Assembly (NCBI GenBank): GCA_030390025.1
Contig: CM059432.1
Coordinates: 79,486,001 to 79,550,000, forward strand
From: Squalus acanthias
Taxonomy: Eukaryota
DNA length: 64,000 nt
Direction of reading: 5' to 3'
Part shown: in pieces, positions 6,572 through 64,000 of the stretch
Layout: each line of letters opens with the position of its first letter
How positions within the stretch are numbered: the stretch's first letter is position 1
Notes under the pieces: generated by a model
Databases searched by the model: none
The model's input: only the letters and a program-made list of their open reading frames with translations
What the model was told of the DNA's origin: nothing
Position numbers and translations under genes: made by a program

Positions 6572-9014
6572 CTAATCACCCTTGTGCATTCCCTTAGTGA
6601 CTGTCTTCTGTGTGCCTTTGCCTGTCCTAGTACTCCTACGCAGGGCTGCAGCACGGATAGTGGAAGGCTGCTGACTTTCAGTGTGGGAGACTGCAGATGG
6701 CCTTGCAGGATGACCTCCAGCAGCTCTGGGCCTAGAAGGCCCAGCTTTAGAATGCACCACCTCGGCATAGGCGCCAGCAGTCTGGGCTGGCTGGCTGACA
6801 CGCAACAGCAAGGGCACAGGCGGAGTGGCAGTGGTGGGAGGACTAATGCTGTCATCCTGAGAGAGGACAGCAGGTTTGTGTTCCACAGAGCAACTGCCAC
6901 TCTCCTGTGGCAGTGCCTCAGCCATCCGACTAATCTGTTGGAGGACAGATTGCTGGACTGCTGTGACACCCTGCAAGCCCCTTTCAACACTGGTAGCTGT
7001 AGCCATGATGCCAGCAGTCTGTGCTTACGTGGTAGCAAGCTGCGTTTGCATGGCAACAAGCTGAGCTTGCATGACTTCAGTCTGTTCTTCCATTGCAGCA
7101 CTCAGACATTGGGTGGCTTTTGCTTGTGCTGCAATGGAAGCTGAGACATCGGCCATCAGACGCTGCATCATGGTTGGGTCCACAAGTGCGCTAATGGAGT
7201 TGCCCATCACTTCCATGCTGGAAAGGATGGACCCCAAGCTCTGCGCAAAGCCCTGTGCAAGATTGGTGTCGGACGCCTCCATGCTCCTTAACATTGCACT
7301 CAGGCTTTCTGGCAGGCACAATGCACCAAGCATTTCATTGTGCATACCTATCAGCCTCCTTCTGTAGGCCGCCCCATCGAAGTCCTCTGCAGCAGAACTT
7401 GCGTGCGACCTCGCCCTCCGGGGAGCTGGTACCTGCGCTACCCTTTCCCCCTGCCCTTGCTGCAGTTCATTTGTGCCCAGAGTCTTACCACGTGCAGATC
7501 CCGCATATAGCCTATCCTCTAAAGTACGCGGAGTGCCAGTATCTGAGCTGGTGGCTGTGAGTGTGAAATCGAGTGACGGTGCGTCTGCTGCATCACTTCC
7601 TTCTTCCTCTTGCACTTCCTGCTCCTCCACCACTGCATGGCCAGGTTGCAGTTCTTGGCTATCTGGAAGGAGAAAAGCACAAGGATAGGGTTGTGGTGAG
7701 GGGAGGGGGAGGAAAGTAAGAGTTGCATGCTTACACCATCTGCAGCTGGTAAATCAGAACAGATTGTAGGATGAGGGGGAAGTGGGACGTGAAAAGGAGG
7801 ATTAGGTATGAGGATACCGTCATCTTGTATTGTTTCAGCCCCGCCGCTGGCCAAAGGCTCAGCGATGGCAGCTCCAATTATCACCAGCACCGTCTCCACC
7901 GGGAGGGGTTAGGTCATGCAGGTGCGCCTGCCCCCGCCGGTTAGGTCCTGCTGCCTCCGGTTGTTTTTTTTTCGTTCATGGGATGTGGGCGTCGCTGGCA
8001 AGGCCAGCATTTATGGCTCATCCCTAATTGCCCTTGAGAAGGTGGTGGTGAGCCACCTTCTTGAACTGCTGCAGTCCGTGTGGTGATACTTCCTTGTAGT
8101 GGTTTGGTACAACTGAGTGGCTTGCTAGGCCATTTAAGAGTCAACCACATTGTTGTGGGTCTGGAGTCACATATAGGCCAGACCAGGTAAGGACGGCAGA
8201 TTTTCTTCCCTAAAGGACATTAGTGAACCAAATGGGTTTTTACGACAATATGGTAGTTTCATGATCACCATTACTGATACTAGCTTTTTATTCCAATTTA
8301 TTTAAAGTAACTGAATTTAAATTTCCCAGCTGCCATGGTGGCATTATGAACTCATGTCTCTGAATCATTAGTCCCAGCCTCTGGATTACTAGTCCAGTAA
8401 CATAACCACTATGCTACCGTACCCACAAAAAGCCACCTTGTCCTGTAAGAGAAAGGGAAGTGTGTTGGTGAGTGTGGCACAATGTGTTTGGGTGATGTGC
8501 CTGTCATGGTTGAATAGCTGGCAGTGTGTGCAAGCTGTGAGATGTGGCTGTGAGGCTTGCAGCAGTAATAAGTAATTCCAGCATTTTCTGTTTTTATTTC
8601 AGATTTCTGGCATCTGCAGTATTTTGCTTTTGAATAAGTATATGAGGTTGAGGTGAAGTGAGGTATGAGTCGTGTTTGATAGAGATTGTTGGTAGGTGAG
8701 TTATGGGTGTGTGGTGCACTGAGCAGTGTGTGAGGCTGGTGGTGCATTTGAAGATGAATTCACTGACCTTGACCACTCGTGTGAGGTCATTATACTACTT
8801 CCTGCACTTCATCCAGGTTCTCAGGGTTACATTGATTGCTTTGACAGCGACGGCCACCTGCTCCCATTTCCTTCTCAGCATGTGTCTGGAGGGCCCCCTG
8901 GCCCCTTGTGGATAAGAGGACACCTCTCCTCCTGTCCACCTCCTGCACCAGAGCCTCAAGTGTGGCATCAGAAAATCTGGGAGCCCTCTCTCTGCCATGT
9001 TGTGCCATCTTCAC
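6572..9014 (-). pseudogene. Harbinger Myb/SANT-like (trihelix) DNA-binding partner gene, three exons, interrupted by SINE and PLE inserts
   Basis: Exon 1 (9014-8768) reads RERAPRFSDATLEALV..KWEQVA..RTWMKCRK and ends GTCAAG|gtcagt. Exon 2 starts at the acceptor at 8442 and ends near 7818. Exon 3 starts near 7663 with an acidic and coiled-coil-like tail. Confidence 0.8.
7963..8424 (-). mobile_element. tRNA-headed SINE (about 460 bp), bipartite derivative of the Zenon-like LINE
   Basis: A box TAGCATAGTGG and a degenerate B box. The first ~320 nt match the leader of 58502-60110. The last ~130 nt match the 3' tail of 30883-31864 and 28895-29323. Ends in an A-tail. Confidence 0.85.
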
Positions 9015-9244: not shown

Positions 9245-10106
9245 GGGAATGGTGGCATAGTGGTTATGTTACTGGATTAGTAACCCAGAGGCCTGGACTA
9301 ATGATGTGAGTTCAAATCCCACGATGGCAGCTGGGGAATTTAAATTCAGTTAATTAAATAAATCTGGAATAAAAAGCTAGTATCAATAATGGTGACCATG
9401 AAACTATCAGATTGTTGTTAAAAACCCATCTGGTTCACTAATGCCCTTATCCTTACCTGGTCTGGCCTATATGTGACTCCAGACCCACAGCAATGTGGTG
9501 GATTCTTAATTGCCCTTTGAAATGGCCTAGCAATCCACTATAAGAATAAAACCGGATGGACCACCCTACATCGACACTTGCTTCGGGACACCCAGCCCAG
9601 TTGACCCTGCACTAACACCTCACTAACATCTGGGGAATTGTGCCAAAATTGAGAGAGCTGTCCCACAGACTAGTCAAGCAACAATATGACCCTCACAGAA
9701 TCATACCTTTCAGCCATATGTCCTGTTCCACTGGCAGGACTGACCCACCAAGGGTGGTGGTATACAGTTGGGAAGGAGTGGCCCTAGGAGTCCTCAACAT
9801 TGACTCTGGACCCCATGAAGTCAAGCATGGGCAAGGAAACCACCTACTGATGAATCAGTACTCCTCTGTGTTGAGCACCACTTGGAAGAAGCACTGAGGG
9901 GGTAGCAAGGGCAAAGAATGTATGCTGGGTGAGGGACTTCAATGTCCATCACCAAGAGCTGGTTGAGTCTTGAAGGACATAGCTGCCAGACTGGGCCTGT
10001 GCCAGGTGGTGAGAGAACCAACACGAGGGGAAAAACCTACTTGACCTTGTCCTCACCAATCTACCTGTCGTAGATGCATCTAGTCCATGACAGCATTGGT
10101 AACAGT
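9245..10106 (+). mobile_element. tRNA-headed CR1/Zenon-like LINE, 5' portion with decayed APE domain
   Basis: Same head and leader as the 58502 copy, followed by TNIWGIVPKL, GVALGVLNIDSGPHEV and DFNVHHQE motifs. Confidence 0.85.
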
Positions 10107-15841: not shown

Positions 15842-15894
15842 ATTTGCTGTATTAGAGCAAAGGGTGTTTATGCTGCAGTAGGACTGTGGTAAGC

Positions 15895-28894: not shown

Positions 28895-29323
28895 CTCAAG
28901 TCAGAATTGTGATGGAATACTCATCATTACATAGATGAGTCCAGCTGCAACAAAACTCAAGAAGCTTGACACCATCCAGGACAAAAACGGTTCACTTGAT
29001 CCATGTCCCTGCCACTGGACAGCACCTCCCTCCCCTGCTACCTTTACTACCAAGAGAGTCAAGAGCAGCACTTTGATGGGAACACCATCTCCTCAAAGTT
29101 GTCTTCCAAGTCACACACCATCCTGAGTTGAACATATAATCGCCGTTCTTTCATTGTTGCTGGGTTAATATCCTGGAATTGCCCATCTAACACCATCATG
29201 GGAATACCATCACAAGGACTGCAGTGGTTCAAGGCAGCGGCCTATCACCTTCTCAGGGCAACTAGGGATATCAATAAACTTGGCTTTGTTAGTGTAACAC
29301 TAAATTCCAAGAACACATCTTTT
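28895..29323 (+). mobile_element. Zenon-like LINE 3' fragment (older copy)
   Basis: Encodes MSPAATKLKKLDTIQDK and has a tail homologous to that of the 7963 and 30883 copies. Confidence 0.75.
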
Positions 29324-30690: not shown

Positions 30691-30882
30691 TATTATAGAC
30701 AGTTGAGGAAGATAAATTGTCATGAGAATAAGTAGGGTAATCATGCCATAGACACAGTTAAGGAGGATGCCATTGGTGACTTTGACGATATTGGTACAGT
30801 GAGTAGGACAGAAAGAAGTAAGTTGGGAGTTAGAGAATGAACTGGAAGGTTCTTTTTTCCAAGGGTGGGCTGTGATTTTTTT

Positions 30883-31864
30883 AAAAATTCATTCCTGGGA
30901 TGTGGGTGTCGCTGCAACATTTATTGCCCATTCCTAATTGCCCTCGAGAAGGTGAGCTGCCTTCTTGAACCGCTGCAGTCCATGTGGTGAAGGTACTTCC
31001 ATAGTGCTGTTAGGGAGGGAGTTCCAGGATTTTCACCCAGCGATGATGAAGGAACGGATATTTCCAGGTCAGGATGGTGTGAAACTTGATGGGGAACTTG
31101 CAGGTGATGGTGTTCCCCTGCGCCTGCTGCCTTTGTCCTTTTAGGTGGTAGAGGTTGTGGGTTTGGGAGGTTTGCCTTGGCAAATTGCTGCAGTGCATCT
31201 TGTAGATGGTACACACTGCAGCCATGGTGCACTGCTGGTGAAGGGAGTGCTATTGTCCTGGATGGTGTCAAGTTTCTTGAGTGTTGTTGGAGCTGCACAC
31301 ATCCAGGCAAGTGGAGAGTGTTCCATCACACTCCTGACTTGTGCCTTGTAGATGGCTTTGGGGAGTCAGGAAGTGAGACACTTGCTGCAGAATACCCAGC
31401 CTCTGAATACCCACAGTGTTAATGTCATAGAGTGGCTGGTCCAGTTAAGTTTCTGGTCAATGGTGACCTCCAGGATATTGACGGTGGGGGATTCGGCGAT
31501 GGTAATGTCAAGGGGCGGTGGTTAGATAGTCATTGCTTGGCACTTGTGTGGTGCACATGTTCAGTTTTATTCTTATTATTGTTTTTTGTAACAGGCAGTT
31601 AAGAGTCAACCATATAGCTGTGGGTTTGGAGTCACATATAGGCCAGACTCAGATTTCCTTCCCTAAAGGACATTAGTAAACCAGATGGGTTTTTACGACA
31701 ATCCGATAGCTTGTGGTCACCATTACTGATACTAGCTTTCTTATTCCAGATTTATTTAATTAATTGAATTTAAATTCCCCGTGGTGGGGTTTGAACTCAC
31801 ATCTTTGGATCAGTTAGTCCAGGCCTCTGGGTTACTAATCCAGTAACATAACCACTATGCTACC
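30883..31864 (-). mobile_element. Internally deleted tRNA-headed Zenon-like LINE (about 1 kb)
   Basis: Head and leader (31864 to about 31565) joined directly to C-terminal coding sequence MEHSPLAWMCAAPTTLKKLDTIQD..AAVCTIYKMHCSN and the 3' tail. Confidence 0.85.
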
Positions 31865-34325
31865 AGTCCCAAGAGGGAAGACATGAAGGGAGAACTAGAT
31901 GGTGAGGGAAATGGCCTAGTCAATGATAAAATGCTTTCACTGCCAGTGAGATGAGGCAGCTCCGCAGCCTAAAGGGATGAAGCCTGGAGGAAGAAGCAAA
32001 GGTAAGTAATCTTATTAAAACACACCACACTCACCTCACACACTTACCTCTCCACACTTGCACTCATCACTCACCTGCACACCGGACATTTCGGCCCCTC
32101 CGACCCCCGCCTCGCCTTGCTGACCCTGGCGAGGTTCGGAGCCATCGGGATGCCCACACTTTAGATCGCAAAATAGGGATTAGCCAAAAAACTGCCTGTT
32201 AACTACCTGTTAACAGGCAGTTAATTGGCACTAATCCCCTTCCCGCCTCGAGGAGACAGGACCCGGAGCGGGTTGGGTACCCGCCTCCTGGGAAGATGGC
32301 ACAGAGGCGGGTTGGGGGTGGGATGGGTACCTGCTCCCAGATTCTGCCATTTTCCCGGCAGTCCCACCTCCATACCCGCCTCCCCAGGGCTGGCAAAATT
32401 GTCCCCCAAGAGTTACCTCAGTGAACATGGTAGAGAATATTTAGGGTGAAGCAGAGGGAAACTCTGGGCATATCCAAGAGGAATTGGACCCTGCAGCAAT
32501 GGCAGGTTTAAAGGAGTGGGAAGCACAAAGGTATGTTGCAGAATAAAAGGGAAAGAGAAGGGAGGCAGAGGCAGAAGTTATAGTTCATGAAGCGAGCAGA
32601 GAGATCCAGAAGGCAGCCATCAGGGGTAGGGACCTCAGGTGGCAGCAATATGCACACCCAAGTGGACATTGTGGTAGTAATTATGTTACATAAGTAAAGA
32701 TACAAGTGGTGGTCTTAGACTACAGAGTGCCTTCACTGTTGGAAACTATTGAGTCTTTTTAGTGCCGGGCTTTAGAGAGGAAACTTTTTAGCAGCGGAGT
32801 TGCGTGTCACTCCTCTTAGCAGCTATACGGCTCCTACTTTCCTCTTGGAATTTTCATCAGTCACCCAATTAACTTATCTACTCCCTACCTGGTTTCAGTT
32901 GAGCAGAGCCTCAGGCAGGAACAATACAGCAGAGGACAGATTTGAAGGACGAGACACATGTGGGAGAAGGTGAGGCCTGTTTATGCATAAAGAGGCAGAG
33001 AGAAGACCTAGTGAGTAGGAACAGCAATGGCCCATTGATCTGATGACAGGCAGTGCTGGTGGCTAAAAGCAGCCATGGTGCACAGAACAGAGTCCCAAAG
33101 TGGGGGACAAGAGCAAAGATCAAAATGGAGTGGAGCTGAAGTCGGTGGAGTGGTAGAGCAGAGCAGTGCAGCATAGAGACTCTGTGGCAGAAGTAACATC
33201 CTCAGATAGAGACTTGGTAGCAGAAACGGTGTGCTGAATTGGAGCAGAGTCTTGCCAATTTCAGAAGAAACTGAGTCGGGAGCTGGAAAGGTATTGGGAG
33301 TAGTTAAATTGCGAACTTGAAACTTTTAGAGTTAAATTTTAAGCTTTTGATGAGACAGCAATGTCTTCAGTAGCAAGGAGGAGAGACTGGGAGGGCAAGC
33401 ATAGTTGCAGATGGAGCTTTTAAGATTTCCCACACTGGCTAACTTTGAAGTAGTTTGTTATAGGTAAATGCAACCTGAATCTGGTATCGGGGTCTAACTC
33501 GACACTGCAATGAAGCAGAGTGAGACTCTCTGCAGTCAGTTTGGACCTTACAACCCATTTACATGGCAAGTTTTGAGTCAGTTTGAAGTGGTTTTGCCTT
33601 GGACCAATGCTAAACTTGTGGAGTGTGAATGCACCATTAGAATGTCAATTTGGTACAAATTCATATTGAATTACAGGTTGTTTTCTGTTGTAGCCCCATC
33701 CACTGGCCTAAACTGTTTTCATTATTTGAGATCCTCACAACCAGCACAGAAAGAAGACTTTCAACTCAATAATCTAGATTCAATTCAGTCCAGACTAATG
33801 GGATGAAAGCCCATTTCACCCATTTTTACTTCGGTTTTCTCGGCATTTAGCATTAAAATTTACAATTATGTTTGGTTGAGCAGATTGAAAATCAGTGCTC
33901 TGAAAATAAAATGTGAATTATTTGTCTACCGGGGGTAAATTGTCCGCCTCACTAGATAATCTATATCCTGTTTTACTACAAGATGAAATTAGTGAGCAAT
34001 AGCTAACCAGAAAATAAATAATCCAAATGTCTGGAAGTAGGAAGCATTTATACAACTGTGAAAAAAGTAATTGCAAAAAGTCTTGTAAATATACAAAAAT
34101 GGTTGGCTGGAGAGGAAAGTCTTAAGAAGATGCAAATGAATCATTGTTTTCATAAGTTCTGCCATTTCTTTTCTCTTGAACTGTTTTGTATGTGATACAA
34201 TACGATCAATATAACTTCCCCAGAATAAAATATTTGTATTTTGCTACCACTGTTTCAACATCAGATTTCCAATGTCTAATTGAGAATAAAGTGGTTAAAA
34301 CAATTATTCTTTCTATGCAACTTAC

Positions 34326-40700: not shown

Positions 40701-41164
40701 CCAGCACACTTGGAGCCCGGGGAGCAGGTCCCTGTAGCTCGTCCACCTCCACGCGGCCGACCTGCCCTCAAGCCGGTTCACCCGGCTGCTCCACGCCCGG
40801 CCGTTCCACGTCCACCGGCGTCCTACAAGAGCCGCTCCGGCTGGCCCACCAGACCGCCGCACCGTCTCGTCCACACCTCCTGAGCGGATTCTGGGGGGAG
40901 CTGTGTGGCGGATCGCCACCTAAAACGGGCATAATCCACTCTTCCGTCTGTGGACAAATTTCCAGTCCCTCCCCTTTAAGGCACATTACCTTTAAGGCAG
41001 AAGGAGGCGGGGCCTCAGGTTTTACCCAGAGAATTCTGGGGGTTTTCCAGAGAATTCTGGGAGCAGCTCTCGCAGCCATTTTGATATAGCATGCAGTGAA
41101 TAAAAGTTTCTTGTTTTCCACACATGGATTCAGCCTCCATTCGTGTTTCGCAGCAGCCTCAACA
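37781..41164 (+). mobile_element. Ty3/Gypsy LTR retrotransposon (CsRn1-clade-like), internally deleted
   Basis: 261-bp LTRs at 37781-38041 and 40904-41164 (TG..CA, 3 substitutions by eye). ATAT TSD. PBS TGGTGACCCCGACG (tRNA-Trp). PPT at about 40893-40900. Confidence 0.97.
38082..40883 (+). pseudogene. Gypsy gag-pol remnant: gag N-terminus fused out of frame to RT, RNase H and integrase
   Basis: Gag start AVSVKLPEF..PEAWFLQAE, RT YLDD, RNase H TDAS..DRELLA, integrase HVDIVGP..SDRG..ANGLCERFH and GPY module. Stop at 38938-38940 and a frameshift near 39848. No protease. Confidence 0.93.
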
Positions 41165-42628: not shown

Positions 42629-44098
42629 CATTAACCCTAATCTTTTGTTTCCTATTTGCCAACCAACTTTCTATCCATGCAACTACATTTCTTCTTACAC
42701 CATACACCTAAATTTTTGTAAGAAGCGAAACACCTTATAAAATGCTTTCTGAAACTCGATATACACAACATCTGCTGCATTTCCTTTAACCATGCAACAG
42801 GTTACTTATTCAAAAATATTACTTTTGTCAAACATAACTTGACTTAAAGCTGTTCTGGGTGCTCTTGATTATCCTATGCATTTCTAATTGCTCACTGATT
42901 TAATCTTGAGATAACAAATCAAAAATGAGGAAAGTGGGTCAGGGCATAGGAAAGCAATGAATCAAGGATGAGCAGTCAACAAAATCTACCAATAAAAGAA
43001 AGATGAAATTGCTCCAAATAATTTTTGGAAATCCTTCCAGTTACCATCTTGGTTTCTTTACTAAGCTGAGGCCTTAAGGTTTGTAATATAAGAAATGACA
43101 ACATTTACAAGAAAACAATTAAACTATGCAAATATTTGTTGCGATTTAAATGTGCCTACCAGCATTTTCCATGGGAGGTCTACTATCCCTCTGATAAGCC
43201 TAGGGCTTGAGTTAATTGACCTTCCCAGAGTAATCTCTAAAGACACTCAACAAAATAGCAGTCGATAATTTCCAGCTTGCATCTGTGCTTACAACTAACA
43301 GAAATGTTTTATGATTGGCATCAAGACGGGCCTCTCACAGATTGTGCCACGATTTGCTGTTTGTAACACATCCTCTCCACTCCAATGGAAAATGACTGAT
43401 GACAACTCCCCCCACCCCCTCCCCCTGCCAAAGGAAACAATGCTAATGAGAAGTTGCTAGCATATTTTTTGTATATCTCAAGGGAAGATAAAACATAAAC
43501 TCAACCTTTCCTGGAAAAAGGCTGTTTATTTAGTAAATACATGTATGCAATATCAAATGAAACCTTCCACTTGGAAATATGACACTGTTTAATTGTTATA
43601 TTTGTACTGTATTTTAAATAGTTACATCAGCTGCATTGCTTTTACTTATGTTTATCTCAGCATTTTTTTTAAAAAGTGGAAATCTGAAAAGGACTATTCA
43701 ATTATTCAAGTTTGGAGGGAGTTTCTGAATAAAGTTCCTGAATGTAAACATTTTTCTTGGAGCAGAATCGTTTAGTAACATTTTGGCCTAGAAATGGGAG
43801 AAGGCCCGAAAACAGGTGCAGGCATCGCACAGCACTAGGTGCCTGTGCCCGTTCAAAGTCGTGCACGCACCACACAAAATTCGTGCTGCCTGCTCTTATA
43901 ATGATTGCATTGCTGATCTCTGTGCTAAATGCATTGCTGATTGGCTTAGCACTGAACAGGGGGCTGCAGGGAGCCAATATCAGGTGCAATCTACTGGCCA
44001 ATAAAGTTTGGCCTAGACTCTCTGCACTACTTAAAGGGGAGATGCTTTGTTGCAGAAGCACCTCATTGTCATTGTGAACAGAGCCATGGCCTAACAAC

Positions 44099-44163
44099 CA
44101 AGGGCAAGGGCAAGGGCAAGGGCAAGGGCAAGGGCAAGGGCAAGGGCAAGGGCAAGGGCAAGG
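44099..44163. repeat. (CAAGGG)10.8 perfect hexanucleotide microsatellite
   Basis: Read directly from the sequence. Confidence 0.98.
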
Positions 44164-45296
44164 AGATTTTCTGATGCGGCACTGGAGGCCTTTGTCCTGG
44201 GGATACAAAGATGTTGTGAGGTCCTCTATCTGCAGGGGGTCAGGATGCCTTCAAGGTTGAACACCAGAAGGCTGTGGGAGGAGATCACTCAAGCCGTCAC
44301 TGCGATGAGTATTGTCTCCAGGACCTGGATCCAGTGCTGTAAAAAGTTTAATGACCTCACACGAGTGGTCAAGGTGAGTGAATGCATCATCAAATGCCAT
44401 ATCCCACCATCTGCACCATAAGTTTCACACACTGCTCAATGCACCACACCCCCATCACTCACCTACCAACAATCTCTAGCAATCACCACTCATCACTCAT
44501 ACCTCACAATTATAGCAACACCCACATCTCACACCTTGCACGTGCTGTTAGCTATTCAACCATAGCAGGCACATTTCCCAAACACATTGCACCACACTCA
44601 CTAACGCACTTCCCTTTCTCTTGCAGGCAAAGGTGGCGCACAACCGCCGGGAGCACCAGCAGGTGGGTGGACAAGAAGCCAGACTTCAGAACCTCATGGA
44701 GCTGGAGGAAGCAGTCCTCAACATAATTGGAGAGGTAGTCACAGGGTCTGTGGCGAGCAGGGAAGTTGAATGCATTGCTGATGATGATGGTTTGCTCATA
44801 CCTAAACCTTTATCTCACATCCCACTTCCTGCTCATCCCACAATCTCTTCTCACTTACAAGCTGCTGATGGTGTATGCCTGGATATCTTGCTTTACCCCC
44901 TCCCCTCACCAGAACCCAACCCTTGTGAATTTCTCCTTTCAGATACCCAAGAACTGCCAGCAGCCAGCCTGTCCCTGAAGTGATGGAGGAGGACAGTGAT
45001 AGAGGAGAAGACGACACATTGGTACTGCATCTAACACTCATAGACACAAGCTCAGAAAATGGCACTGCGCGTACTTTAGTATAGAGGCAAGATTTGCACG
45101 TGGTGAGTCACCGGGCACGAGTGGGCTGCAGCCAGGCCAGGGGGAAAAGGTAGCTCCCCGGAGGGTGAGTTCGTGCAGAAGACTCAGATGATGACCTCGA
45201 TGAAGCAACCTTCAGAAGGGGGGGATGGGCATGCACACAGAAATGGTGGTGCAACGGCAAACCTGCCAGAGAGCCTCTCATCAGTGTCCAGGCGCA

Positions 45297-46793
45297 TAGA
45301 ATCATAGAAATTTACAGCACAAAAGGAGGCCATTCGGCCCATCGTGTCTGTGACGGCCAAAAACGAGCTATCCAGCCTAATCCCACTTTCCCGCTCTTGG
45401 TCCATAGCCCTGTAGGTTACGGCACTTCAAGTGCATATCCAAGTACTTTTTAAATGTGATGAGGGTTTCTGCCTCTACCACCCTTTCAGGCAGTGCGTTA
45501 CAGACCTCCACCATCCTCTGGGTGAAAAAATTTCTCCTCAACTCCCCTTTAATCCTTCTACCAATTACTTTAAATCTATGCCCCTGGTTATTGACCTCTC
45601 TGCTAAGGGAAGTAGGTCCTTCCAATCCGCTCTATCTAGGCCCACCATAATTTTATACAACCCAAATAAGTCTCACTCAGCCTCCTCTGTTCCGAAGAAA
45701 ACAACCCCAGTCTATCCAATCTTCCTCATAGCTAAATCTCCTCTGTACCCTCTCTAATGCAATCACAGCTTTCCTGTAATATGGTGACCAGAACTGTATG
45801 CAGTGCTCTAGCTGTGGCCTAACTAGTGTTTTATACAGTTCAAGCATAACCTCCCTGCTCTTATAGAATCATAGAATGGTTACATCATAGAAAGAGGCCG
45901 TTCGGCCCATTGAGCCCGTGCCGGCTCTCTGCAAGAGCACTTCAGCTAGTCCCACTACCCCGCCCTTTCCCCGTAGCCCTGCAAATTATTTTCCTTCAGG
46001 TACTTATCCAATTCCCTTTAGAAAGCCACGATTGAATCTGCCTCCACTACCCTTTCAGGCAGTGCATTCCAGATCCTAACCACTCACTGCGTAAAAAAGT
46101 TATTCCTCATGTCGCCTTTGGTTCTTCTGCCAATCACCTTAAATCTGTGTCCTCTGGTTCGCGACCCTTCCACCAATGGGAACAGTTTCTCTCTATCTAC
46201 TCCACTCATGATTTTGAACACCTCTATCAAATCTCCTCTCATCTTCTTTGCTCTAAGAAGAACAACCCCAGCTTCTCCAGTCTATCCACGTAACTGAAGT
46301 CCCTCATCCCTGGAACCATTCTTGTAAATCTTTTCTGTACCCTCTCCAAAGTCCATTGGTATCTTCCTGAAGTCTACAGCTTTCTTCCTCACTATCAACC
46401 ACACGGCCAATTTTTGTATCATCTGCAAATCTCTTAATCATGCCCCCTACATTGAAGTCTAAATCATTGATATGTACCACAAAAAGCAATGGACCTAGTA
46501 CTGAGCCCTGCGGAACCCCACTGGAAACAAACACCCGTCAACCATTACCCTTTGCTTCCTGCCACTGAGCCAATTTTGGATCCAACTTGCCACTTTTCCT
46601 TGGATGCCATGGGCTTTTACTTTTCTGACCAGTCTGTCATGTGGGACCTTGTCAAAAGCCTTGCTAAAATCCATGCAGACTACATCAAACGCACTACCCT
46701 TATCAACCCCCCTTGTTACCTCCTCAAAAAATTCAATCAAGTTAATCAGACACGACCTTTCTTTAACAAATCCATGCCGACTGTCTTTGATTA
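45297..46793 (-). mobile_element. Nested CR1 fragments with (ATTCTATG)n tails
   Basis: Two 3' tails (starting near 45297 and 45862) plus RT remnants DFSKAFDKVPH, GVPQGSVLGP and FADD. Confidence 0.88.
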
Positions 46794-47075
46794 AGCATGG
46801 GGGAGTTCGGCTCCAACATTGCACGGGGCTTTGCGCGGAGCTTGGAGGCCATGATTTCCATAATGGAAATGATGGGCAACTCCATGACCTTGTGGACCCA
46901 GCCATGATACTGCACGTGATGGCTGATGTCGCAGCTTCCATTGCAGTACAGGCGGAAGCGACACAATGTCTCAGTGCTGCAATGGAAGCTCAGACTGCTG
47001 CCATCGTGGCTGGGTTTACAAGTGTAGAAAGGAGCATGCAGGGTCTCACAGCACTCCAGCAATCTCTCCCCCAAC

Positions 47076-47191
47076 ATCGACCAAAAACGTTAACTCTGTT
47101 TCTCTCTCCACAGATGCTGCCTGACCTGCTGAATATTTCCAGCATTTTCTGTTTTTATTTCAGATTTCCAGCATCATCAGTATTTTGCTTT
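47076..47191 (+). mobile_element. Penelope-like terminal repeat fragment
   Basis: Homologous to 3861-3980; begins inside stem II of the hammerhead motif. Confidence 0.8.
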
Positions 47192-47362
47192 GGTCCTATA
47201 AACTGTTAGTTTGATTAAGCTGGAATGGGTTAATAAATGCACGTGAAGGAGTTAATTTTAATAAGTAGTTTAAAGTGACTAAACACCTCAAAGTCAATCT
47301 GATGGAATATTCACTACTTACCTGGATGGATGCAGTTGCAACAACACTCAAGAAGCTCGACA

Positions 47363-48607
47363 CAACAACAACGTGTATTTATATAGCACCTTTAACATAG
47401 TAAAACGTCCCAAGGTGCTTCACAGGAGTATTAAAAGACAAAAAATTTGACACCGAGCCACATAAGGAGAAATTAGGGCAGGTGCCCAAAAGCTTGGTCA
47501 AAGAGGTAGGTTTTAAGAAGTGTCTTAAAGGAGGAAAGAGAGGTAGCGAGGCGGAGAGGTTTAGGCAGGGAATTCCAGAGCTTAGGGCCTAGGCAACAGA
47601 AGGCATGGCCACCAATGGTTGAGCGATTATTATCAGGGATGCTCAAGAGGCTAGAATTAGAGGAGCGCAGATATCTCTGGGGTTGTGGGGCTGAAGGAGA
47701 TTACAAAGATAGGGAGAGGCGAGGCCATGGAGGGATTTGAAAACAAGGATGAGAATTTTGAAATCGAGGCGTTGCTTAACCGGGAGCCAATGTAGGTCAG
47801 CGAGCACAAGGGTGATGGGTGAACGGGACTTGGTGCGAGTTAGGACATGGGCAGCCGAGTTTTGGATGACCTCAAGTTTACGTAGGGTAGAACGTGGGAG
47901 GCCAGCCAGGAGTGCGTTGGAATAGCTAATTCTAGAGGTAACAAGGGCATGGATGAGGGTTTCAGCAGCAGATGAGCTGAGGCAAGGGCAGAGACGGAGG
48001 TGGAAATAGATGTTCTTAGTTATGCTGCGGATATGTGGTTGGAAGCTCATTTCAGGGTCAAATATGACACCAAGGTTGCGAACAGTGTGGTTCAGCCTCA
48101 GACAGGTGTTTGGGAGAGGGATGGAGTCGGTGGCTAGGGAACGGAGTTTGTGGTGGGGACCGAAAACAATGGCTTCAGTCTTCCCAGACACTTGGAGAAA
48201 ATTTCTGCTCATCCAGAACTGGATGTCGGATAAGCAGTCTGACAATTTAGAGACCATGGAGGGGTTGAGAGAAGTGGTAGTAAGGTAGAGCTGGGTGTAG
48301 TCAGCGTACATGTGGAAACTGACGCTGTGTTTTCGGATGATGTCACCAAGCAGCAACATGTAGATGAGAAATAGGAGGGGGCCAAGGATAGATCCTTGGG
48401 GGACACCAGAGGTAATGATGCGGGAGCGGGAAGAGAAGCCGTTGCAGGTGATTCTCTGGCTATGATTAGATAGATAAGAATGGAACCAGGCGAGTGCAGT
48501 CCCACCCAGCTGGACGACGGTGGAGAGGTGTTGGAGAAGGATGGAGTGGTCAACCGTGTCAAAGGCTGCAGACAAGTCAAGAAGGACGAGGAGGGATTGT
48601 TTACCTT
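47363..48607 (-). mobile_element. L2 LINE 3' half inserted into a Zenon-like fragment
   Basis: ORF 47643-48635 contains LLDLSAAFDTVDH, GVPQGSILGP and YADY, and ends in a (TTG)n tail. Zenon-like sequence KKLD|T..QDKA continues across the insertion (47283-47362 and 48608-48930). Confidence 0.92.
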
Positions 48608-49756
48608 TGACAACACCCAGGACAAAGCAATCCACTTAATCGGCAGCCCATCCACCACCACCTTAAACATCTATCCCTCCACCACCGGCGACCATGGCTG
48701 CAGTGTGCACTATCTACAGGATACACTGCAAGGTTTCTTAGACTGCACCTCCAAAACCCACAACCCCCACAACCTAGAAGGACAAGGGCAGCAGGTGCAT
48801 AGGAACAGCATCACCGCCAAGTTCCTCTCCAAGTCACACACCATTCCAACTTGGACATATATCACCCTACCTTCATCGTCGCTGGGTCAAAATCCTGGAA
48901 CACCCTACCTAACAACACTGTGGGAGTACCTTGTGTCTTGTAGGTGGTAGAGAGGCTTTGGAGAGTCAGGAGGTGAGCCACCAACTGCAGAATACCCAGC
49001 CTATGAACAGTTCTCGTAGCCGCAGCATTTATGTGGCTGGTCCATTTGAGTTTCAGGACAATGACGACCCCCAGTATTTTGATAATAGGGGATTATACGA
49101 TAGTAATGCCATTGAAGGTCAAGGGGAGGTGGTTAGACTCTCTTGTTGGAGATGGTCATTGCCTGCCACTTGTGTGGCGTGACTGTTACTTGCCACTTAA
49201 CTGCCCAAGCCTGGATCTTGCTGCATGCGGGCATGGACTGCTTCAGATTGATTCACCTTCTCTTTTATTGTTATGTTCTCCTGACTGGTCATTCAAGATT
49301 GATTATTTTCATAAATCCTTAGTAGTTTTCTACCTACTTTCCTCACTTTTGATTTGTATATTCCCTGATTTGCTGCTATTTACTTTGAGACATTCAACTT
49401 GGCATGATGGTGACAGAAAAAAATGACCATTACAGGAAGTAAATGTTCACAAGATTGTAAAATAATTACAGATGGAGAAAGTCATTCCAGAATAACCTTA
49501 GAAGTCCCCCCCCAATGCGGTATCCATTTGGTTCCTAAATTATTGCCGAGATTTCACCTCCACTACACTAGCCAACTCCATTCCATGCATTGATCACTCT
49601 TTGCATGACAAACTTCCCGATAGTTGTAAATTTACCTTTTACTAATTTGAACCTGTGGCCCCCTACTCTTGAAATTTAAAGTAATTTTCAGGATTTACTT
49701 TTCCATACCCTTTACGATCTTGTATACATTTATAAAGTCTTTCAAGCCTCCTTTCA

Positions 49757-52300
49757 TAAGAACATAAGAAATAGGAGCAGGAGTAGGCCATATGGCCCCT
49801 CGAGCCTGCTCCGCCATTCAATAAGGTCATGGCTGATCATCAACTTCAACTCCACTTTCCCGCCCGATCTCCATATCCCTTGATTCCCCTAGAGTCCAAA
49901 AATCTATCTATCCCAGCCTTAAATATACTCAAAAGACTCAGCATCCACAGCCCTCTGGGGGCAGAGAATTCCAATGATTCACAACCCTCTGAGTGAAGAA
50001 ATTCCTTCTCATCTTGGTCTTAAATGGCCTACCCCTTATCCTGAGACTATGCCCCCTAGTTCTAGGCACTCCAGCCAGGGGAAACAACCTCTCAGCATCT
50101 ACCCTATCAATCCCCTTCAGAATCTTGTATGTTTCAATGAGATCACCTTTCATTCTTCTAAACTCCAGAGAGTATAGGTCCATTCTACACAATCTCTCAT
50201 CATAGGACAGCCCTCTCATCCCAGGAATCAATCTACATAGAAACATAGAAACATAGAATCTAGGAGCAGGAGTAGGCCATTCGGCCCGTCGAGCCTGCAA
50301 CGCCATTCAATACGATCATGGCTGATCATTCAAATCCAGTACCCTGTCCCTGCTTTTAATCCCCACAGTACACATATCCCACCCGACCCCCGTAACCCCA
50401 CGTATTTAATTCCCCCTAACATATCCCATCCTATCCCCATAACCCCACATATTTAATACCCCCCTAACACTAAGGGTCAATTTATCATAGCCAAATCAAC
50501 CTAACCCGCACATTTTTGGACAGTGGGAGGAAACCGGAGCACCCGGAGGAAACCCACGCAGACACGGGGAGAATGTGCAAACTCCACACAGACAGTCACC
50601 CGAGGTCAGATTCGAACCCGGGTCTCTGGCGCTGTGAGGCACCAGTGCTAACCACTATGCCACCGTAGTGAACCTTCGTTGCACCACCTCCAAGGCAAGT
50701 ATATCCTTCCTTAGATAAGGAGACTAAAACTGTGCACAGTACTCCAGATGTGGTCTCACCAAGGCCCTGTACAATTGTAGCAAGACTTCCTTACTCTTAT
50801 ACTCCAACTCCCTTGCAATAAAGGCTAACATGCCATTTGCCTTCCTTATTGCTTGCTGTACCTGCATGCTAGCGTTCTGTGTTTCTTGCACGAGGACACC
50901 CAAATCTCTCTGAACACCAACATTTAAAAGTTTCTCACCATTTAAATAATATTCTGTTTTTCTATTCTTCCTACCAAAGTGAATAACCTCACATTTCCCT
51001 ACATTATACTCCATCTGCCACCTTACTGCCCACTCACTTAGTCTATCTATATCCCTTTGCAGACTCTTTGTGTTCTCCTCACAGCTTGCTGTCCCATCTA
51101 GCTTTGTATCGTCAGCAAACTTGGATACATTACACTCGGTCCCTTCATCTAGGTCATTAATATAGATTGTAAATAGCTGAGGCCCCAGCACTGATCCTTG
51201 CAGCACCCCACCAGTTACAGCCTGCCAACCTGAAAAAGACCCTTTTATCCCTACTCTCTCTTTTCTGTCCATTAACCAATCCTCTATCCATACCCCCAAT
51301 CCCATGAGCCCTTACCTTGTGTAATAACCTTTTATGTGGCACCTTATCGAATGCCTTTTGGAAATTCAATTATACTACATCCACTCATTCCCCTTTATCT
51401 ACCCTGCTAGTTACATCCTCAAAAAACTCTAATAAATTTGTCAAACACAATTTCCCTTTCATAAAACCATGTTGACTCTGCCTAATTATGTTATGATTTT
51501 CTAAGTGCCCTGATACCACTTCCTTAACAATGGATTCCAGCATTTTCCCGATGACTGATGTCAGGCTAACTGGCCTGTGGTTCCCTGTTTTTGAATCCAC
51601 TGGGACCGTTCTAGAATCTAGGGAATTTTGAAAGATCAAAACCAATGCATCCACTATCTCTGCAGCCACCTCTTTTAGAACCCTAGGATGCAGGCAGTCA
51701 GGTCCAGGAGATTTGTCGGCTTTTAGTCCCATTAGTTTCTCTAGTACTTATATTAATTACGTGAAGTTCCTCACCCTCATTAGACCCTTGTTTCCCCACC
51801 ATTTTTGGTATGCTTTTTGAGTCTTCTACTGTGAAGACAGATACAAAATATTTGTTTAACGTTTCTGCCATTTCCTTATTCTCCATAATAATTTCTCCTG
51901 TCTCAGCCTCTAAGGGACCAATGTTTACTTTTGCTACTCATTTCCTTTTTACATACTTGTAGAAGCTCTTACAATCTGTTTTTATATTTCTTGCTAGTTT
52001 TCTCTCATTCTATTTTTTCCCTTATCATCAATTTTTTGGGTCATCCTTTGCTGGTTTCTGAAACTCTCCCAATCCTCAGTCTTACTACTATTCTTCGCAA
52101 CATTATAAGCTGCTTCTTTCAATCTAATGCTATCCTTAACTTCTTTAGTTAGCCACAGATGGATCACTTTTCCTGTGGAGTTTTTGTTTCTCAATGGAAT
52201 GTATTTTTGTTGAGAATTAGGAAATATTTCTTTAATTGCTAGCCACTGCTTATCTACCGCCATATCTTTTAATCTATTTTTCCAATCTACCTTAGCCAAG
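49757..52300 (-). mobile_element. CR1 LINE, 5'-truncated, carrying a SINE insertion
   Basis: ORFs 51385-51732, 50724-51305 (FADD) and 49938-50306, with a (TTCTTATG) tail. Confidence 0.93.
50236..50666 (-). mobile_element. HE1-type V-SINE (tRNA head, V domain, CR1 tail)
   Basis: Reverse complement reads TGGCATAGTGG..GGTTCGAATC, then V-domain GTGTGGAGTTTGCACATTCTCCCCGTGTCTGCGTGGGTTTCCTCCGGGTGCTCCGG, then a (TTTCTATG)n tail. Confidence 0.9.
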
Positions 52301-58501: not shown

Positions 58502-60110
58502 GGGAACAGTAGCATAGTGGTTACTGGACTAGTAATCCAGAAGCCTGGACTAATGATCCGGAGACGTGAGTTCAAATCCCACCATGGCAGCTGGGGAATT
58601 TAAATTCAGTTAATTAAATAAATCTGGAATAAAAAGCTAGTACCAGTAATGGTGACCATGAAACTATCGGATTGTCGTAGAAACCCATCTGGTCCACTAA
58701 TGTTCTTTAGGGAAGGAAATTTGCCATCCTTACCTGGTCTGGCCTATATGTGACTCCAGACCCACAGCATTGTGGTTGACTCTCAACTGCCCTCTGAAAT
58801 GGCCTAGCAAGCTACTCAGTTGTAAAAAACTGCTATGATAAACAATAAGAATAAAACCGGACGGACCACCCGGCATTGACCTTGGCACCAGCTATGAACA
58901 CGACAACAGCACACCCAGCCCAGCTGACCCTGCAAAGTCCTCCTCACCAACATCTGGGGACTTGTACCAAAATTGGGAGCGCTGTCCCACAGACTAGTCA
59001 AGCAACAGCCTGACATAGTCATACTCACAGAATCATACCTTTCAGCCAATGTCCCAAACTCCTCCACCGGCAGGACAGACCCACCAGGGGTGGCGGCACC
59101 GTGGTATACAATCGGGAAGGGGTGGCCCTGGGAGTCCTCAACATTGACTCCGGACCCCATGAAGTCTCATGGCTTCAGGTCAAGCATGGGCAAGGAAACC
59201 TCCTGCTGATTACCACCTACCGCCCTCCCTCAGCTGATGAATCAGTACTCCTCCATGTTGAAAACCACTTGGAAGAAGCACTGAGAGTAGCAAGGGCACA
59301 GAATGTACTCTGGGTGGGGGACTTCAATGTCCATCACCAAGAGTGGCTCAGTAGCACCACTACTGACCGAGCTGGCTGACTCCTGAAGGACATAGCTGCC
59401 AGTCTGGGCCACTGGGTGGTGAGAGAACCAACACGAGAGGAAAAACCTACTTGACCTCGTCCTCACCAATCTACCTGTCGCAGATGCATCTGTCCATGAC
59501 AGCATTGGTAGCAGTGACCACCGCACAGTCATTGTGGAGACGAAGTCCCGTCTTCACACTGAGGACACCCTCCATCGTGTTGTGTGGCACTACCACCGTG
59601 CTAAATGGGATAGATTTAGAACAGATCTAGCAGCTCAAAACTGGGCATCCATGAGGCATTGTGGGCCATCAGCAGCAGCAGAATTGTATTCCACCACAAT
59701 CTGTAACCTCATGGTCCGGCATATCCCTCACTCTACCATTACCATCAAGCCAGGGGACCAACCCTGGTTCAATAAGGAGTGTAGAAGAGCATGCCAGGAG
59801 CAGCACCAGGTGTAACACAGGACTACATGTATGCTAAAAAGCAGAAGCAGCGTGCTATAGACAGAGCTAAGCAATCCCACAATCAATGGATCAGATCAAA
59901 GCTCTGCAGTCCTGCCACATCCAGTTGTGAATGGTGGTGGACCATTAAACAGCTAATGGGAGGAGGAGGCTCCATGAATATCCCTATCCTCAATGATGGT
60001 GGAGCCCAGCACGGGAATGCAAAAGACAAATCTGAAGCATTTGTAACCATCTTTAGCCAGAAGTGCCGAGTGGATGATCCATATCGGCCTCCTCCTGAGG
60101 TCCCCACCAC
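58502..60110 (+). mobile_element. tRNA-headed CR1/Zenon-like LINE, 5' 1.6 kb, cut by a CR1 insertion
   Basis: A box at 58510-58520 and B box at 58570-58579. APE coding from about 58937 (LLTNIWGL, DIVILTES, YRPP, VGDFN, SDH), then the PWF linker. Confidence 0.9.
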
Positions 60111-63100
60111 ATAGAAACATAAAAACATAGAAAAATAGGAGCAGGAGTAGGCCATTCAGTTCTTCGAGCCTGCTCTGCCATTCAATATGATCATGGCTGA
60201 TCCTCTATCTAAATACCATATTCCCGCTCTCTCCCCATACCCTGTGAAGGAATAAGCCATATAACCTATTCAGAAAAATACACCATTCTATGAAAGAATT
60301 CTGGCCTTATTAAAACATGACAAACTGGGTTTGGAAATCTGGAAGCCTCAACAATCTAAAGCTGTGATAGAATTCTGGCTATAGAGATAAGATAGTTGTT
60401 GACACTGAATCAATAACCTTATTGAAACAGAAGGTTAAAGGCTCCCGACAGTCTGAACCTTTCGGAACAAAACAAAGGTCCACCCTGTACAAGGTGTTCT
60501 AATTTACACTTCGTAAAGAGGCACAAACAGAAGGCCTTAGTAAAAATGACATCAAATAAAATGCACCTGCTGTTACACCGTTTTTTATGGTAAGCTTGGA
60601 ACACCTAGAGGAGAGACATGATTCTGCATTACTACCAGCTGAGGTGACTAAGAATTGCATAGATCACCCTGGTTAAGGTGTTCTAATTTACACTTCGTAA
60701 AGAGGCACAAACAGAAGGGCTCAGTAAAAATGACATCAAATGAAACGCACCTGCTGTTACACCGTTTTTTATGGTAAGCTTGGAACACCTAGAGGAGAGA
60801 CACGAGTCTGTATTGCTACCAGCTGAGGTGACTAAGAATTGTAGAAGTCAGCAGAAAAATAACTAGAGATAATTAGCTTACATCAGCAGAAAACCTTAAA
60901 GGAAATACCACTGAAAAAGGGTATAAATATTGAACTCTCAATTAGGATAATAGATTCGCTGTAAAGTGGAAAAGCGATTCTCAGGCTTCAGAGGCGGCTC
61001 TGTAAGTCTACAACTCTTTGTACCTCGGGGATCAAAGGTACTGTATTTGATTTTGGTGGATATCCTGAATAAGACTAAGAACTGTAAAACTGTAGCGAAG
61101 TTAAGATTTGAGAGTAAGGATCTCTGATAATAGAATTGTAAAGATTTCTCTTTTTGGAACTGTTAATGTTGCGATTGACTCACCAACTGTAAAATACATG
61201 TCGGTTCTTTAATAAATCTGTATATTTTTAGAATTGTCTCGCATAATACTTCTGTATCAAACTCGCGAACTCAATCTCTGTATGCTCTTTGGTGAGGAGT
61301 TGCAGAATTCCGGGGGAGTTTTCTGGACACTCATAATATCCGGAACGTTACAGTCTAGCTAAACTTATTAAAAGTGCTATCTGGAGGACGGTAACATTTT
61401 CAGGTTGTTCCTTTCCTTTAGGGAGAGATGGTCCAGACCTTTAGACTCAATTAAGCGTCTTTAGGATTCGGCTACCTCAAACTTTAGTTGAAAGTGAACG
61501 TTTGGGGAATACGCCTGATCTGGGGTAGCCCTAAAGGGGCTAGGACTAGTAATTATCCCTTCAACCCCTTGATGCCTTTTTTGTCGAGATATCTATCTAT
61601 CTCCTTTTTAAATATATTCAGTGACTTGGCCACCACAGCCTTCTGTGGTAGAGAATTCCACAGGTTCACCACCCTCTGAGTGAAGAAATTTCTCCTCATC
61701 TCAGTCCTAAATGTCCTACCCCATATCCTGAGACTGTGACCCCTCGTGCTAGACCCCCCAGCCAGGGGAAACATCCTCCCTGCATCCCGTCTGTCTAGCC
61801 CTGTCAGAATTTTATACATTTCAATGAGATCCCCTCTCATTCTTCTAAACTCTAGTGAATACAGGCCTAGTCGACCCAATCTCTCCTCATACGACAGTCC
61901 TGCCATCCCAGGAATCAGTCTGGTGAACCTTCGCTGCACTCCCTCTATGGCAAGTATATCCTTTCTTAGGTAAGGAGACCAAAACTGCACACAGTACTCC
62001 AGGTGTGGTCTCACCAAGGCCCTGTATAACTGTAATAAGACATCCTTGCTCCTGTACTCAAATCCTCTTGCAATGAAGGCCAACATACCATTTGCCTTCC
62101 TAACTGCTTGCTGCACATGTATGTTTGCTTTCAGTGACTGATGTACAAGGACACCCAGGTCCATTTGTACATCAACATTTCCCAATCTACCACCATTCAA
62201 ATAATACTCTGCCTTTCTGTTTTTCCTACCGAAGTGGATAACTTCACATTTATCCACGTTATACTGCATCTGCCATGTATTTGCCCACTCACTCAACCTG
62301 TCCAAATCGCCTTGAAGCCTCTTTACATCCTCCTCACAACTCACAATCCCACCTAGTTTCGTGTCGTCAGCAAACTTGGAAATATTACATTTGGTTCCCT
62401 CATCCAAATAATTGATGTATATTGTGAATAGCTGGGGCCCAAGCACTGATCCCTGTGGTACCCCACTAGTCACCGCCTGCCACCCCGAAAAAGACTCATT
62501 TATTCCTACTCTCTGTTTCCTGTCTGTTAACCAATTTTCAATCCTTGCCAGTATATTACCCCCAATCCCATGTGCTTTAATTTTGCACACTAACCTCTTA
62601 TGTGGGACTTTATCAAAGGCCTTCTGAAAATCCAAAAACACCACATCCACTGGTTCTCCCTTATCTATTCTACCAGTTACATCCTCAAAAAACTCCAGTA
62701 GGTTTGTCAAACACGATTTCCCTTTCATAAATCCATGTTGGCTTTGTCTAATCCCATTGATATTTTCTAACTGTCCTGTTATAAAATAGACTCTAGCATT
62801 TTCCCTACTACTGATGTTAGGTTAACCGGTCTGTAGTTCCCTGTTTTCCCTCTCCCTCCTTTTTTAAATAGTGGGGTAACATTTGCCACCCTCCAATCTG
62901 CAGGAACTGTTCCATAATCTATAGAATTTTGGAAGATGACAACCAATGCATCCACTATTTCCATGGCTACCTCTTTTAGTACTCTGGGATGCAGATTATC
63001 AGGCCCTGGGGATTTATCAGCTTTCAGTCCCATTAATTTCTCCAGCACTATTTTTTTACTAATACTAATTTCCTTTAATTCCTCCTTCTCACTAGACCCT

Positions 63101-64000
63101 TGGTTCCCTAGCATTTCCGGGAGGTTATGTGTGTCCTCTTCTGTGAAGACAGAACCAAAGTATTTGTTTAATTGCACTGCCATTTCCTTGTTCCCCATTA
63201 TAAATTCTCCCGTTTCTGACTGTAAGGGACCTACATTTGTCTTCACTAATCTTTTTCTTTTTACATACATGTAGAAGCTTTTACAGTCTGCTTTTATGTT
63301 CCTTGCAAGTTTACTCTCATACGCTATTTTTCCCCTCTTAATCAATCTCTTGGTCCTTTTTAGCTGAACTCTAAACTGCTCCTAATCTTCAGGCTTGCTA
63401 CTTTTTCTGGCAACTTTATATGACTCCTCTTTGGATCTAATACTATCCTTAATTTCTTTTGTTAGCCATGGTTGGGCCGCTTTTCCTTTTGTGTTTTTGC
63501 GCCAGAAAGGAATGTATAACTGTTGCAATTCGTGCATTCATTCCTTAAATGTTAGCCTTTGTCTATCCACCGTCATGCCTTTTAATGAAGCTCCCCAATC
63601 TATCATAGGAAACTACAAAGGTATGAGGAGTGAGTTGGCTTTGTTTAGATTTAGAACCCTAGTTTCGGATTGGACTTCTTCACTTTTCATCTTAATGAAG
63701 AATTCTATCATGTTATGGTCACTCTTCCCTAAAGGACCCCGCACAACAAGATTATTAATTAACCCCTTCTCATTGCACAATACCCAATCTAGGATAGCCT
63801 GTTCCCTAGTTGGCTCCTCAACGTACTGGTCTAAAAAAAGATCTCGTACACACTCCAGGAATTCATCCTCCACAGTATTATTGCTAATTTGGTTTGGCCA
63901 GTCTATATGTCGATTAAAGTCACCCATGATTACTGTAGTACCCTTGTTACATGCATCTCTAATTTCCTGTTTAATGCCATCCCCTACATTACTACTACTG
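60110..64000 (-). mobile_element. CR1 LINE (same subfamily as 1-3235; runs off the right edge), interrupted by a solo LTR
   Basis: ORFs 63613-63927, 62779-63345 and 61553-62728 are nearly identical to the ORF2 of the first copy. The tail lies at 60110-60242. Confidence 0.95.
60243..61563 (+). mobile_element. Long solo LTR (1321 bp), ERV-like
   Basis: TGTGAAGGAATAA..TTATCCCTTCA termini and a 4-bp TSD ACCC that restores the CR1 3' end. TATAAA near 60922, AATAAA at 61211, and a 184-bp tandem duplication at 60481-60664 / 60665-60845. Confidence 0.88.

Follow-up and report, generated by a model that had tools for sequence, protein, structure and literature searches.

The window analysed here, a 64,000-nucleotide stretch of Squalus acanthias DNA, carries near its right-hand end the 5' half of a Zenon LINE, along with further pieces of the same family, and the features that matter for what follows are these.

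58502..60113, plus strand: Zenon LINE 5' half, family positions ~1-1689, 92% identity to the family majority line
58502..58590, plus: tRNA-derived head; one hairpin resembles an anticodon arm (loop CTAGTAA, 58529-58535), another arm is similar to it, and the stems were read from sequence
58510-58520, plus: A box TAGCATAGTGG, also in five published elasmobranch Zenon 5' ends
58570-58579, plus: B box GTTCAAATCC, in canonical form GTTCGAATCC in the CarCar, RhiTyp and ScyCan consensuses
58591..58819, plus: leader body common to LINE and SINE, with several short hairpins; by motif likeness it is probably the Deu domain
58794..58819, plus: last leader hairpin, with a 4-bp stem, an internal loop, a 4-bp stem and a 7-nt anticodon-like loop CU-AGC-AA (58804-58810)
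58799-58807, plus: AUG-GCC-UAG mini-frame inside the last hairpin, in frame with APE-RT
58832..58835, plus: GCU(A), complementary to the loop (U)AGC and in the APE-RT frame; predicted codon mimic at the translation start
58832..58933, plus: basic N-terminal extension, frame-constrained in the family, with stops in this copy at 58877, 58895 and 58925
58934..60113, plus: part of the single ORF that covers the APE endonuclease and the linker; stops and frameshifting deletions break it in this copy
60118..60242, minus: CR1 3' fragment at the interruption point of the focal Zenon copy
7961..8424, minus: SINE form (likely SacSINE1), in which family positions 2-341 run directly into 3190-end
9245..10106, plus: more diverged copy (75% identity) that has head, body and APE and carries several deletions
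28897..29278, plus: diverged 3' fragment
30876..31870, minus: copy with an internal deletion, in which head and body are followed directly by the C-terminal part of RT and the tail
48609-48932, plus, and 48930-49245, minus: two adjoining 3'-part fragments in opposite orientation

The focal copy opens with GGGAAC at 58502, and this start, the A box and the B box, all noticed in an earlier note on this DNA, are confirmed. That note described 1.6 kb of element; its 5' start stands, and its other end is an interruption by CR1 at 60113, more than a plain truncation. Collinear pieces lie past the window end, at window-equivalent positions 64742-65739 and 69472-70106, so that the focal copy was probably full-length until later insertions split it; the last piece has one T4 inside it and a T5 just before the A tail. 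Within the interrupting sequence is a 177-bp direct duplication (94% identity, window 60481-60841), and the copy also carries a 3.7-kb insertion at window-equivalent 65740-69471 (L051-L052 region), which gave no match against CR1, L2 or Zenon lines. The distance of about 350 nt from head to APE can be made more exact: the open frame runs from ~330 nt after the 5' end and the APE core from ~430 nt. The ATG at 58894 is out of frame as claimed; contrary to the other claim, that this copy has no in-frame ATG, one stands at 58835, where it is closed by TGA at 58877 and is most likely the product of CpG decay of the family's ACG.

Other elements share the window. CR1 copies lie at 1-3235 (plus), 61553-64000 (minus) and 50235-52300 (minus), with CR1 3' fragments again at 13170, 29446, 49755 and 60118, and L2-type LINE fragments, used below as controls, at 47360-48640 (minus), 27500-28290 (minus) and 15890-16480 (plus). 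A Gypsy-type LTR element at 37781-41164 is bounded by 261-bp terminal repeats of 98.9% identity; its RT, RNase H and integrase-like frames are split into three. Repeated fragments with frames occupy 4860-8820 and 41570-47200; we take these frames to resemble Harbinger-type transposase and Myb/SANT-like proteins. Imperfect palindromes lie at 22754-22897 (86%) and 34827-35025 (70%), the former made of a small repeat that is also present at 3846-3982, 30604-30691 and 47075-47194.

Genome-wide, the Zenon unit measures 3.3 kb and consists of a tRNA head, a body of ~240 nt, one APE-RT frame and an A tail. A search of the genome gave 40 scored matches of 16,619 candidates, and 17 of 20 extended loci share a 3' end ~3.3 kb from the head. 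We drew the family majority line from 16 of the 20, leaving out one large-insertion locus and three that stop early. Its frame runs for 973 codons from nt 331, with APE and RT domains identified by Pfam and, in agreement with the earlier claim, no ORF1; the first Met is codon 287, after the whole APE domain, and no in-frame ATG lies upstream of it. In a 664-kb sample (the window plus 600 kb, chosen regardless of the family), Zenon makes up 55 pieces and 7.3% of the sequence, 34 pieces reach the 3' end, and truncation at the 5' side is of the ordinary LINE kind. All eight pieces across the APE start continue into the leader, and among the matches listed all 29 copies picked by a protein query that contained the N-terminal extension extend to position 351 or lower, seven of them to 20 or lower. 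The head-to-APE junction at 9245, present there and genome-wide, is thus family architecture, and the idea that head plus APE-RT ORF is the standard genomic unit is borne out by the 17 loci and the eight pieces. The longest family frames seen are 399 aa and, with stops inside the match, 931 aa, and no fully intact copy was found among those examined. No convincing target-site duplication was found in the seven of the 20 loci with both ends located, and an apparent frameshift near majority position 679 proved to be an alignment artefact. Contigs from RNA runs span the whole element; being assembled, they are silent on start, strand, cap and polymerase, and two are only guessed to be RNA. Small family shares in two metagenome RNA runs and one coral-metagenome RNA run were given no evidential weight, and the raw-read runs X23 and X24 yielded 14 and 0 reads.

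The element is a Zenon, as the earlier note proposed from C-terminal motifs. By eye, its first 400 nt match the published SquAca_Zenon-1 consensus near letter for letter; the lengths are 3314 and ~3315, and both lack ORF1 and end in an A tail (PMC13343379). Like Zenons, which belong to the CR1 group, the element has a single APE-RT frame, and the lack of ORF1 and the poly-A tail are as the published account describes (PMC13343379). A quick RT tree of 87 rows, without a named Zenon protein, places the element outside the shark CR1 and L2 group with support 97, and its closest proteins are P0001, P0002, P0012, P0014 and P0017. P0011 of Heterodontus, annotated as 'storkhead-box protein 1-like', has a stretch 80% identical to Zenon APE over 17% of the query; its gene model has probably taken in a piece of Zenon. 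L111, the nearest relative represented by DNA, carries an in-frame ATG and 36 T4 runs and lacks a tRNA head. In the first 400 nt given in Table S2, the CarCar, HypSab, RhiTyp and ScyCan Zenons show a tRNA-like head followed by the same body as SquAca (PMC13343379); these consensus 5' ends may partly reflect SINE copies. The five species' consensuses measure 3.2-3.3 kb and are over 84% alike, and no tRNA head appears in the first 400 nt of the hagfish and coelacanth Zenons (PMC13343379). In its first 400 nt the leader of the hagfish EptBur_Zenon-2 has an 11-nt hairpin word and an A-run/CCCATC word as in shark, in reversed order, which may be chance.

What might transcribe such an element? By sequence, the head has the A box near +9 and the B box of a type 2 Pol III promoter. 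The Rfam tRNA match of the focal head is weak (20.7 bits, E 0.15, under the 29-bit cut-off; 22.6 bits in another copy), and ARAGORN called no tRNA gene in it. In the five published consensuses (Squalus, CarCar, HypSab, RhiTyp and ScyCan), both boxes and the hairpin arms are kept by eye while nearby sequence differs. Forty-nine LINE and 31 SINE copies begin at the identical base, 8 nt upstream of the A box, as would be expected if one promoter serves both, and an extra G before that base is not in excess (LINE 10/49; SINE 7/31). Of 80 metagenome loci, 3 have a lone B-box-like word upstream, and viral contigs showed no relative and no leader motif.

Pol III terminates at runs of four or more T, and the counts made by eye for the earlier note have held: positions 58502-60110 contain no sense run of four or more T and nine such runs of A, the copies at 7963, 9245, 28895 and 30883 contain none inside, and the CR1 at 1-3235 contains seven. 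Sense T4 density is 0.30/kb in Zenon (42 pieces), against 2.9 in CR1 (38 pieces) and 6.2 in L2 (33 pieces), and the majority lines hold, observed versus expected, 0 versus 4.0 (Zenon), 7 versus 7.6 (CR1) and 6 versus 5.3 (L2). The depletion relative to CR1 and L2 is supported, and the absence of T4 exceeds chance only moderately. Zero T4 compares with 3.9 expected by base composition (p=0.018), with 1.8 in synonymous shuffles that fix protein and codon usage (p=0.13) and with 1.6 in dinucleotide shuffles (p=0.18); once codon or dinucleotide content is held constant, the missing T4 runs by themselves lose significance, since the frame contains little T (19%). TTT is scarcer than in synonymous shuffles (5 versus 11.2, p=0.0055; p=0.07 with dinucleotides fixed). 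In a set of 37 frames, made up of this one, the partial frames of shark CR1 and L2, and those 34 of 80 metagenome loci whose N-free frame reaches 800 aa, Zenon is lowest in TTT ratio (0.45), in TT observed/expected (0.70) and in Phe share (1.85%), in a comparison limited by mostly AT-rich controls. One of the 34 controls, L121, an unrelated LINE outside the Zenon branch, likewise has no T4 (5.6 expected in synonymous shuffles), and L118 (z -2.6), L119 (z -2.2) and the partial shark CR1 frame (z -1.95) are T4-depleted too. L121:1-3018 is a metagenome contig with a CR1-like LINE whose 912-codon frame is 24% T and whose 5' end is missing; it is possibly a second case of T-run avoidance. P0017, near the element in the RT tree, is also Phe-poor (2.1%).

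At the 3' end the first interpretation has to be amended. The T4-T5 run that it noticed at the end of two copies is a minority state, seen at 10 of 72 scored ends (of 75), with a single T as the mode, and we rejected an own T4 terminator as a family feature; not every SINE needs one. T4+ before the A tail is not clearly more frequent than in the genomic background (p=0.06) and shows a weak trend towards older copies (rho -0.21, p=0.07). An A5+ tail is present at 68 of 75 3' ends, and AATAAA lies ~45 nt upstream of the tail. Pol III transcripts carrying AATAAA can be polyadenylated (PMC8466645), which offers a route, one that our data do not show, for Pol III-made Zenon RNA.

Where would translation begin? 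Frame constraint starts near family position 337, that is, at the GCU. Among 94 copies, 62 of 79 indel events between GCU and APE are triplets, including all six shared events; the corresponding figures are 16 of 98 for the leader body and 19 of 96 for decayed APE. AAT repeats and hexamer motifs can yield triplet indels without selection and may contribute to the 62. Of 46 scored copies, 41 keep the GCU in frame, as do the CarCar, HypSab, RhiTyp and ScyCan consensuses, and the published SquAca_Zenon-1 line, unlike the genomic copies, is 1 nt short between GCU and frame. By eye, the hairpin and GCUA are invariant in the five published sharks and rays with a variable linker, and the GCU-to-frame length differs by triplets only in four species; RhiTyp has a 1-nt deletion upstream of GCU, in the linker. 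The one ATG that the family has near the start, which is out of frame, reads ATA in 18 of the 58 copies scored, the most diverged ones among them, and shared non-CpG changes at positions 359-460 are silent in 5 of 6 cases in the long frame and in 1 of 6 in the ATG frame.

The complementarity of the hairpin loop and the GCU suggests a possible pseudoknot. The strict motif, defined after the sequence was seen, falls in frame within the first 20 codons in 8 of 20,000 shuffles (44 with wobble), and a loosely defined pseudoknot in 561 of 1,500. No compensatory change between loop and codon was seen. A loop variant, CCAGCAA, in 12 of 91 copies loses the fourth pair uncompensated, and by eye a second register, GGUUG with the bases right before GCU, fits equally well. 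Loss of the pairing G had looked specific to the SINE (CA in 16-17 versus TG in 1 of 30 copies, found with a query that itself had A at this position), an idea we did not keep, since A occurs also in 4 of 8 old-type LINE copies; one old-type copy has a stem-breaking variant. Folding energies of the leader and its 3' parts do not surpass those of shuffles (z -0.6 to +0.1). By eye, one pair of a neighbouring leader stem runs through A-U, G-U and G-C in different species, which makes a structured leader likely. Published PKI linkers measure 6-10 nt (PMC3517527); that of Zenon would measure 8-9 nt if the stem extends three pairs and 11-12 otherwise. No PKII, PKIII, SLIV or SLV was identified in the leader, and Rfam gave no IRES family match at E up to 5 and 10; we therefore say that the leader 'may work like' a type 6 IRES and do not claim membership.

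The SINE form bears on both questions. Its majority line of ~465 nt, from 30 copies found with the window element at 7963-8424 as query, is 98% identical to the LINE over positions 2-344 and 99% over 3190-3314, and the opening codons of the LINE frame survive in it, in the version carried by eight old-type LINE copies. Several distinct junctions occur among the SINE copies, and on sequence grounds internal deletion of the Zenon LINE is the simplest reading of their origin. The search for old-type copies returned mostly ATA-type common copies, and the eight-copy majority, too noisy beyond ~500 nt for dN/dS between the old and common subfamilies, was discarded. A last-hairpin variant with changed loop and 3' stem occurs in SINE loci L262, L263, L265, L273 and L278 and in the LINE-length L227, which suggests LINE/SINE recombination or an alternative fold. 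The SINE is likely SacSINE1, which was described from spiny dogfish at 463 bp (PMC2746220), since length, host group and layout agree.

How are these observations best explained? The tRNA-type promoter, the near-absence of T-runs and the lack of a usable start codon together suggest that Zenon RNA is likely made by Pol III and possibly translated by tRNA mimicry. To the reading that Zenon is transcribed by Pol III and translated in a cap-independent, non-AUG manner, we give a probability of roughly 0.55. The earlier interpretation survives in its architecture, Zenon identity, ORF1 loss, lack of AUG and T-run depletion relative to CR1 and L2, and fails in its 3' terminator. In mechanistic terms, TFIIIC and Pol III would start 8 nt upstream of the A box, and avoidance of T-runs would carry the polymerase through all 3.3 kb, with termination in the flanking DNA as in Alu. 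The anticodon-like loop of the last hairpin may then pair with the in-frame GCU in a pseudoknot like PKI of dicistrovirus IGR IRESs, so that translation would start at the codon after GCU (ACA, ACG or AAA); this tRNA-mimic step, argued by analogy, we hold tentatively, at somewhat less than even odds. The protein would copy the RNA from its A tail by target-primed reverse transcription with no need of ORF1, and the ~465-nt SINE would be a product of deletion inside the LINE. Pol III-made RNAs retrotranspose without ORF1p, whereas Pol II-made Alu needs it (PMC2666806); this fits Pol III transcription of Zenon and does not prove it, and other Zenons lack ORF1 with no visible head.

The same element could instead be a Pol II LINE that acquired a SINE as its 5' end by template switching, in which case the boxes would merely ride along or serve as a minor promoter, transcription would come from Pol II promoters of the host or within the element, and the low T content would follow from the general strand bias of LINEs or from the avoidance of signals for Pol II processing. 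A SacSINE1-type head, Deu domain and tail also occur in holocephalan (chimaera) and coelacanth SINEs (PMC5499810), a distribution that makes the SINE older than any headed LINE shown so far, so that in deep time either of the two may have come first. Together with the headless Zenons and L111, the non-significance of T4 absence under codon control and the AATAAA near the tail, this speaks for such a capture, which we consider rather unlikely. It sits poorly with the first base common to LINE and SINE, which carries no extra G, with the T4 runs that CR1 and L2 of the same genome hold at expected rates, with boxes and arms conserved in five species, and with the nine upstream ATGs that a capped, scanned RNA would meet and the absence of an in-frame start.

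Two further alternatives concern the frame. Whatever the polymerase, translation could start at the hairpin AUG with readthrough of the UAG two codons on, or at a near-cognate codon (ACG), with no tRNA mimicry. A CAA after UAG favours readthrough, and AUG-GCC-UAG-CAA is in frame and in good start context; the 9-nt spacer that preserves this frame is present in 54 of the 57 copies scored and in four of the five species. Readthrough from the hairpin AUG is thus the chief rival for the translation start, weakened by a common subfamily with a second in-frame stop (TAA) six codons later and by RhiTyp, whose 8-nt spacer breaks the frame; the ACG is ACA or AAA in other species and in old-type copies, and overall we consider an explanation of this kind improbable. 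More improbable still, to the point that we give it very little weight, is a long non-autonomous SINE, made by Pol III, with the frame as a dead passenger and the enzyme supplied by another LINE. The missing start codon and the lack of an intact copy would suit it, but the majority line is open throughout, shared substitutions are mostly silent, shared N-terminal indels are triplets, and the consensuses of five species agree in length and sequence as described above.

The broadest version of the Pol III reading would make Zenon an autonomous Pol III coding retrotransposon with a dicistrovirus-like start, Deu its ribosome-recruiting leader, and the DeuSINEs (SacSINE1, LmeSINE1, AmnSINE1 and SINE3) its deletion descendants; we regard this as speculative and quite probably wrong in at least some part. 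On that version, Deu would be kept in DeuSINEs because ribosome docking lets them capture newly made LINE protein. If true, a conserved SINE domain would gain a function and an origin, and an IRES of the factorless type would sit in a cellular genome. The usual view is that LINEs are Pol II transcripts and that Pol III retroelements are non-coding; a SINE promoter joined to a full LINE frame, amounting to ~7% of a shark genome and kept in sharks and rays, would break this division, and the element would test whether the polymerase sets the need for ORF1. Two open questions become testable, the role of conserved SINE central domains (PMC4824008, PMC5499810) and the origin of factorless IRESs (PMC12221177).

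Several known systems resemble parts of this element. SacSINE1 and the DeuSINEs share with the short form a tRNA head, a body and a LINE-like tail, at 463 bp versus ~465 nt, but are non-coding, whereas here head and body also open a coding LINE; CR1-4_DR-like or L2-2_CM is named there as the partner of SacSINE1, and no function is known for the Deu domain (PMC2746220, PMC5499810, PMC4824008). The PKI of dicistrovirus IGR (type 6) IRESs has, like the leader, a bulged stem, an anticodon-like loop, a short A-rich linker, a codon-like partner and a non-AUG frame, ACA being the commonest predicted start in subtype 6f (PMC3517527, PMC12221177); it differs in having five pairs against four predicted here, and the IRES type is known from RNA viruses, IGR IRESs in non-LTR elements having been raised as no more than a possibility (PMC3894237). 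R2 likewise combines a single ORF with an RNA other than a normal capped Pol II mRNA, but it is an rRNA co-transcript released by an HDV-like ribozyme, is site-specific, uses another endonuclease and has no promoter of its own. The bipartite SINEs of RTE and Vingi of the Bov-tA type also join LINE 5' and 3' parts; there, unlike here, the tRNA head was added after deletion and the parent LINE is taken as Pol II (PMC5786205). That source holds that SINEs cannot encode protein and lists such derivatives from RTE, Ingi, Vingi and R2 only. Within the literature covered, to which Repbase Reports and subscription papers do not belong, no tRNA-headed coding LINE, T-run depletion of such a LINE or IRES role for Deu is described. 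The main text of PMC13343379 has no occurrence of 'tRNA', 'polymerase III' or 'Deu', and its account, as far as that text goes, leaves out the head, the T-run depletion, the missing AUG and the SINE link. The Zenon family itself is known, and what is new here is the last leader hairpin with its predicted pairing to the GCU.
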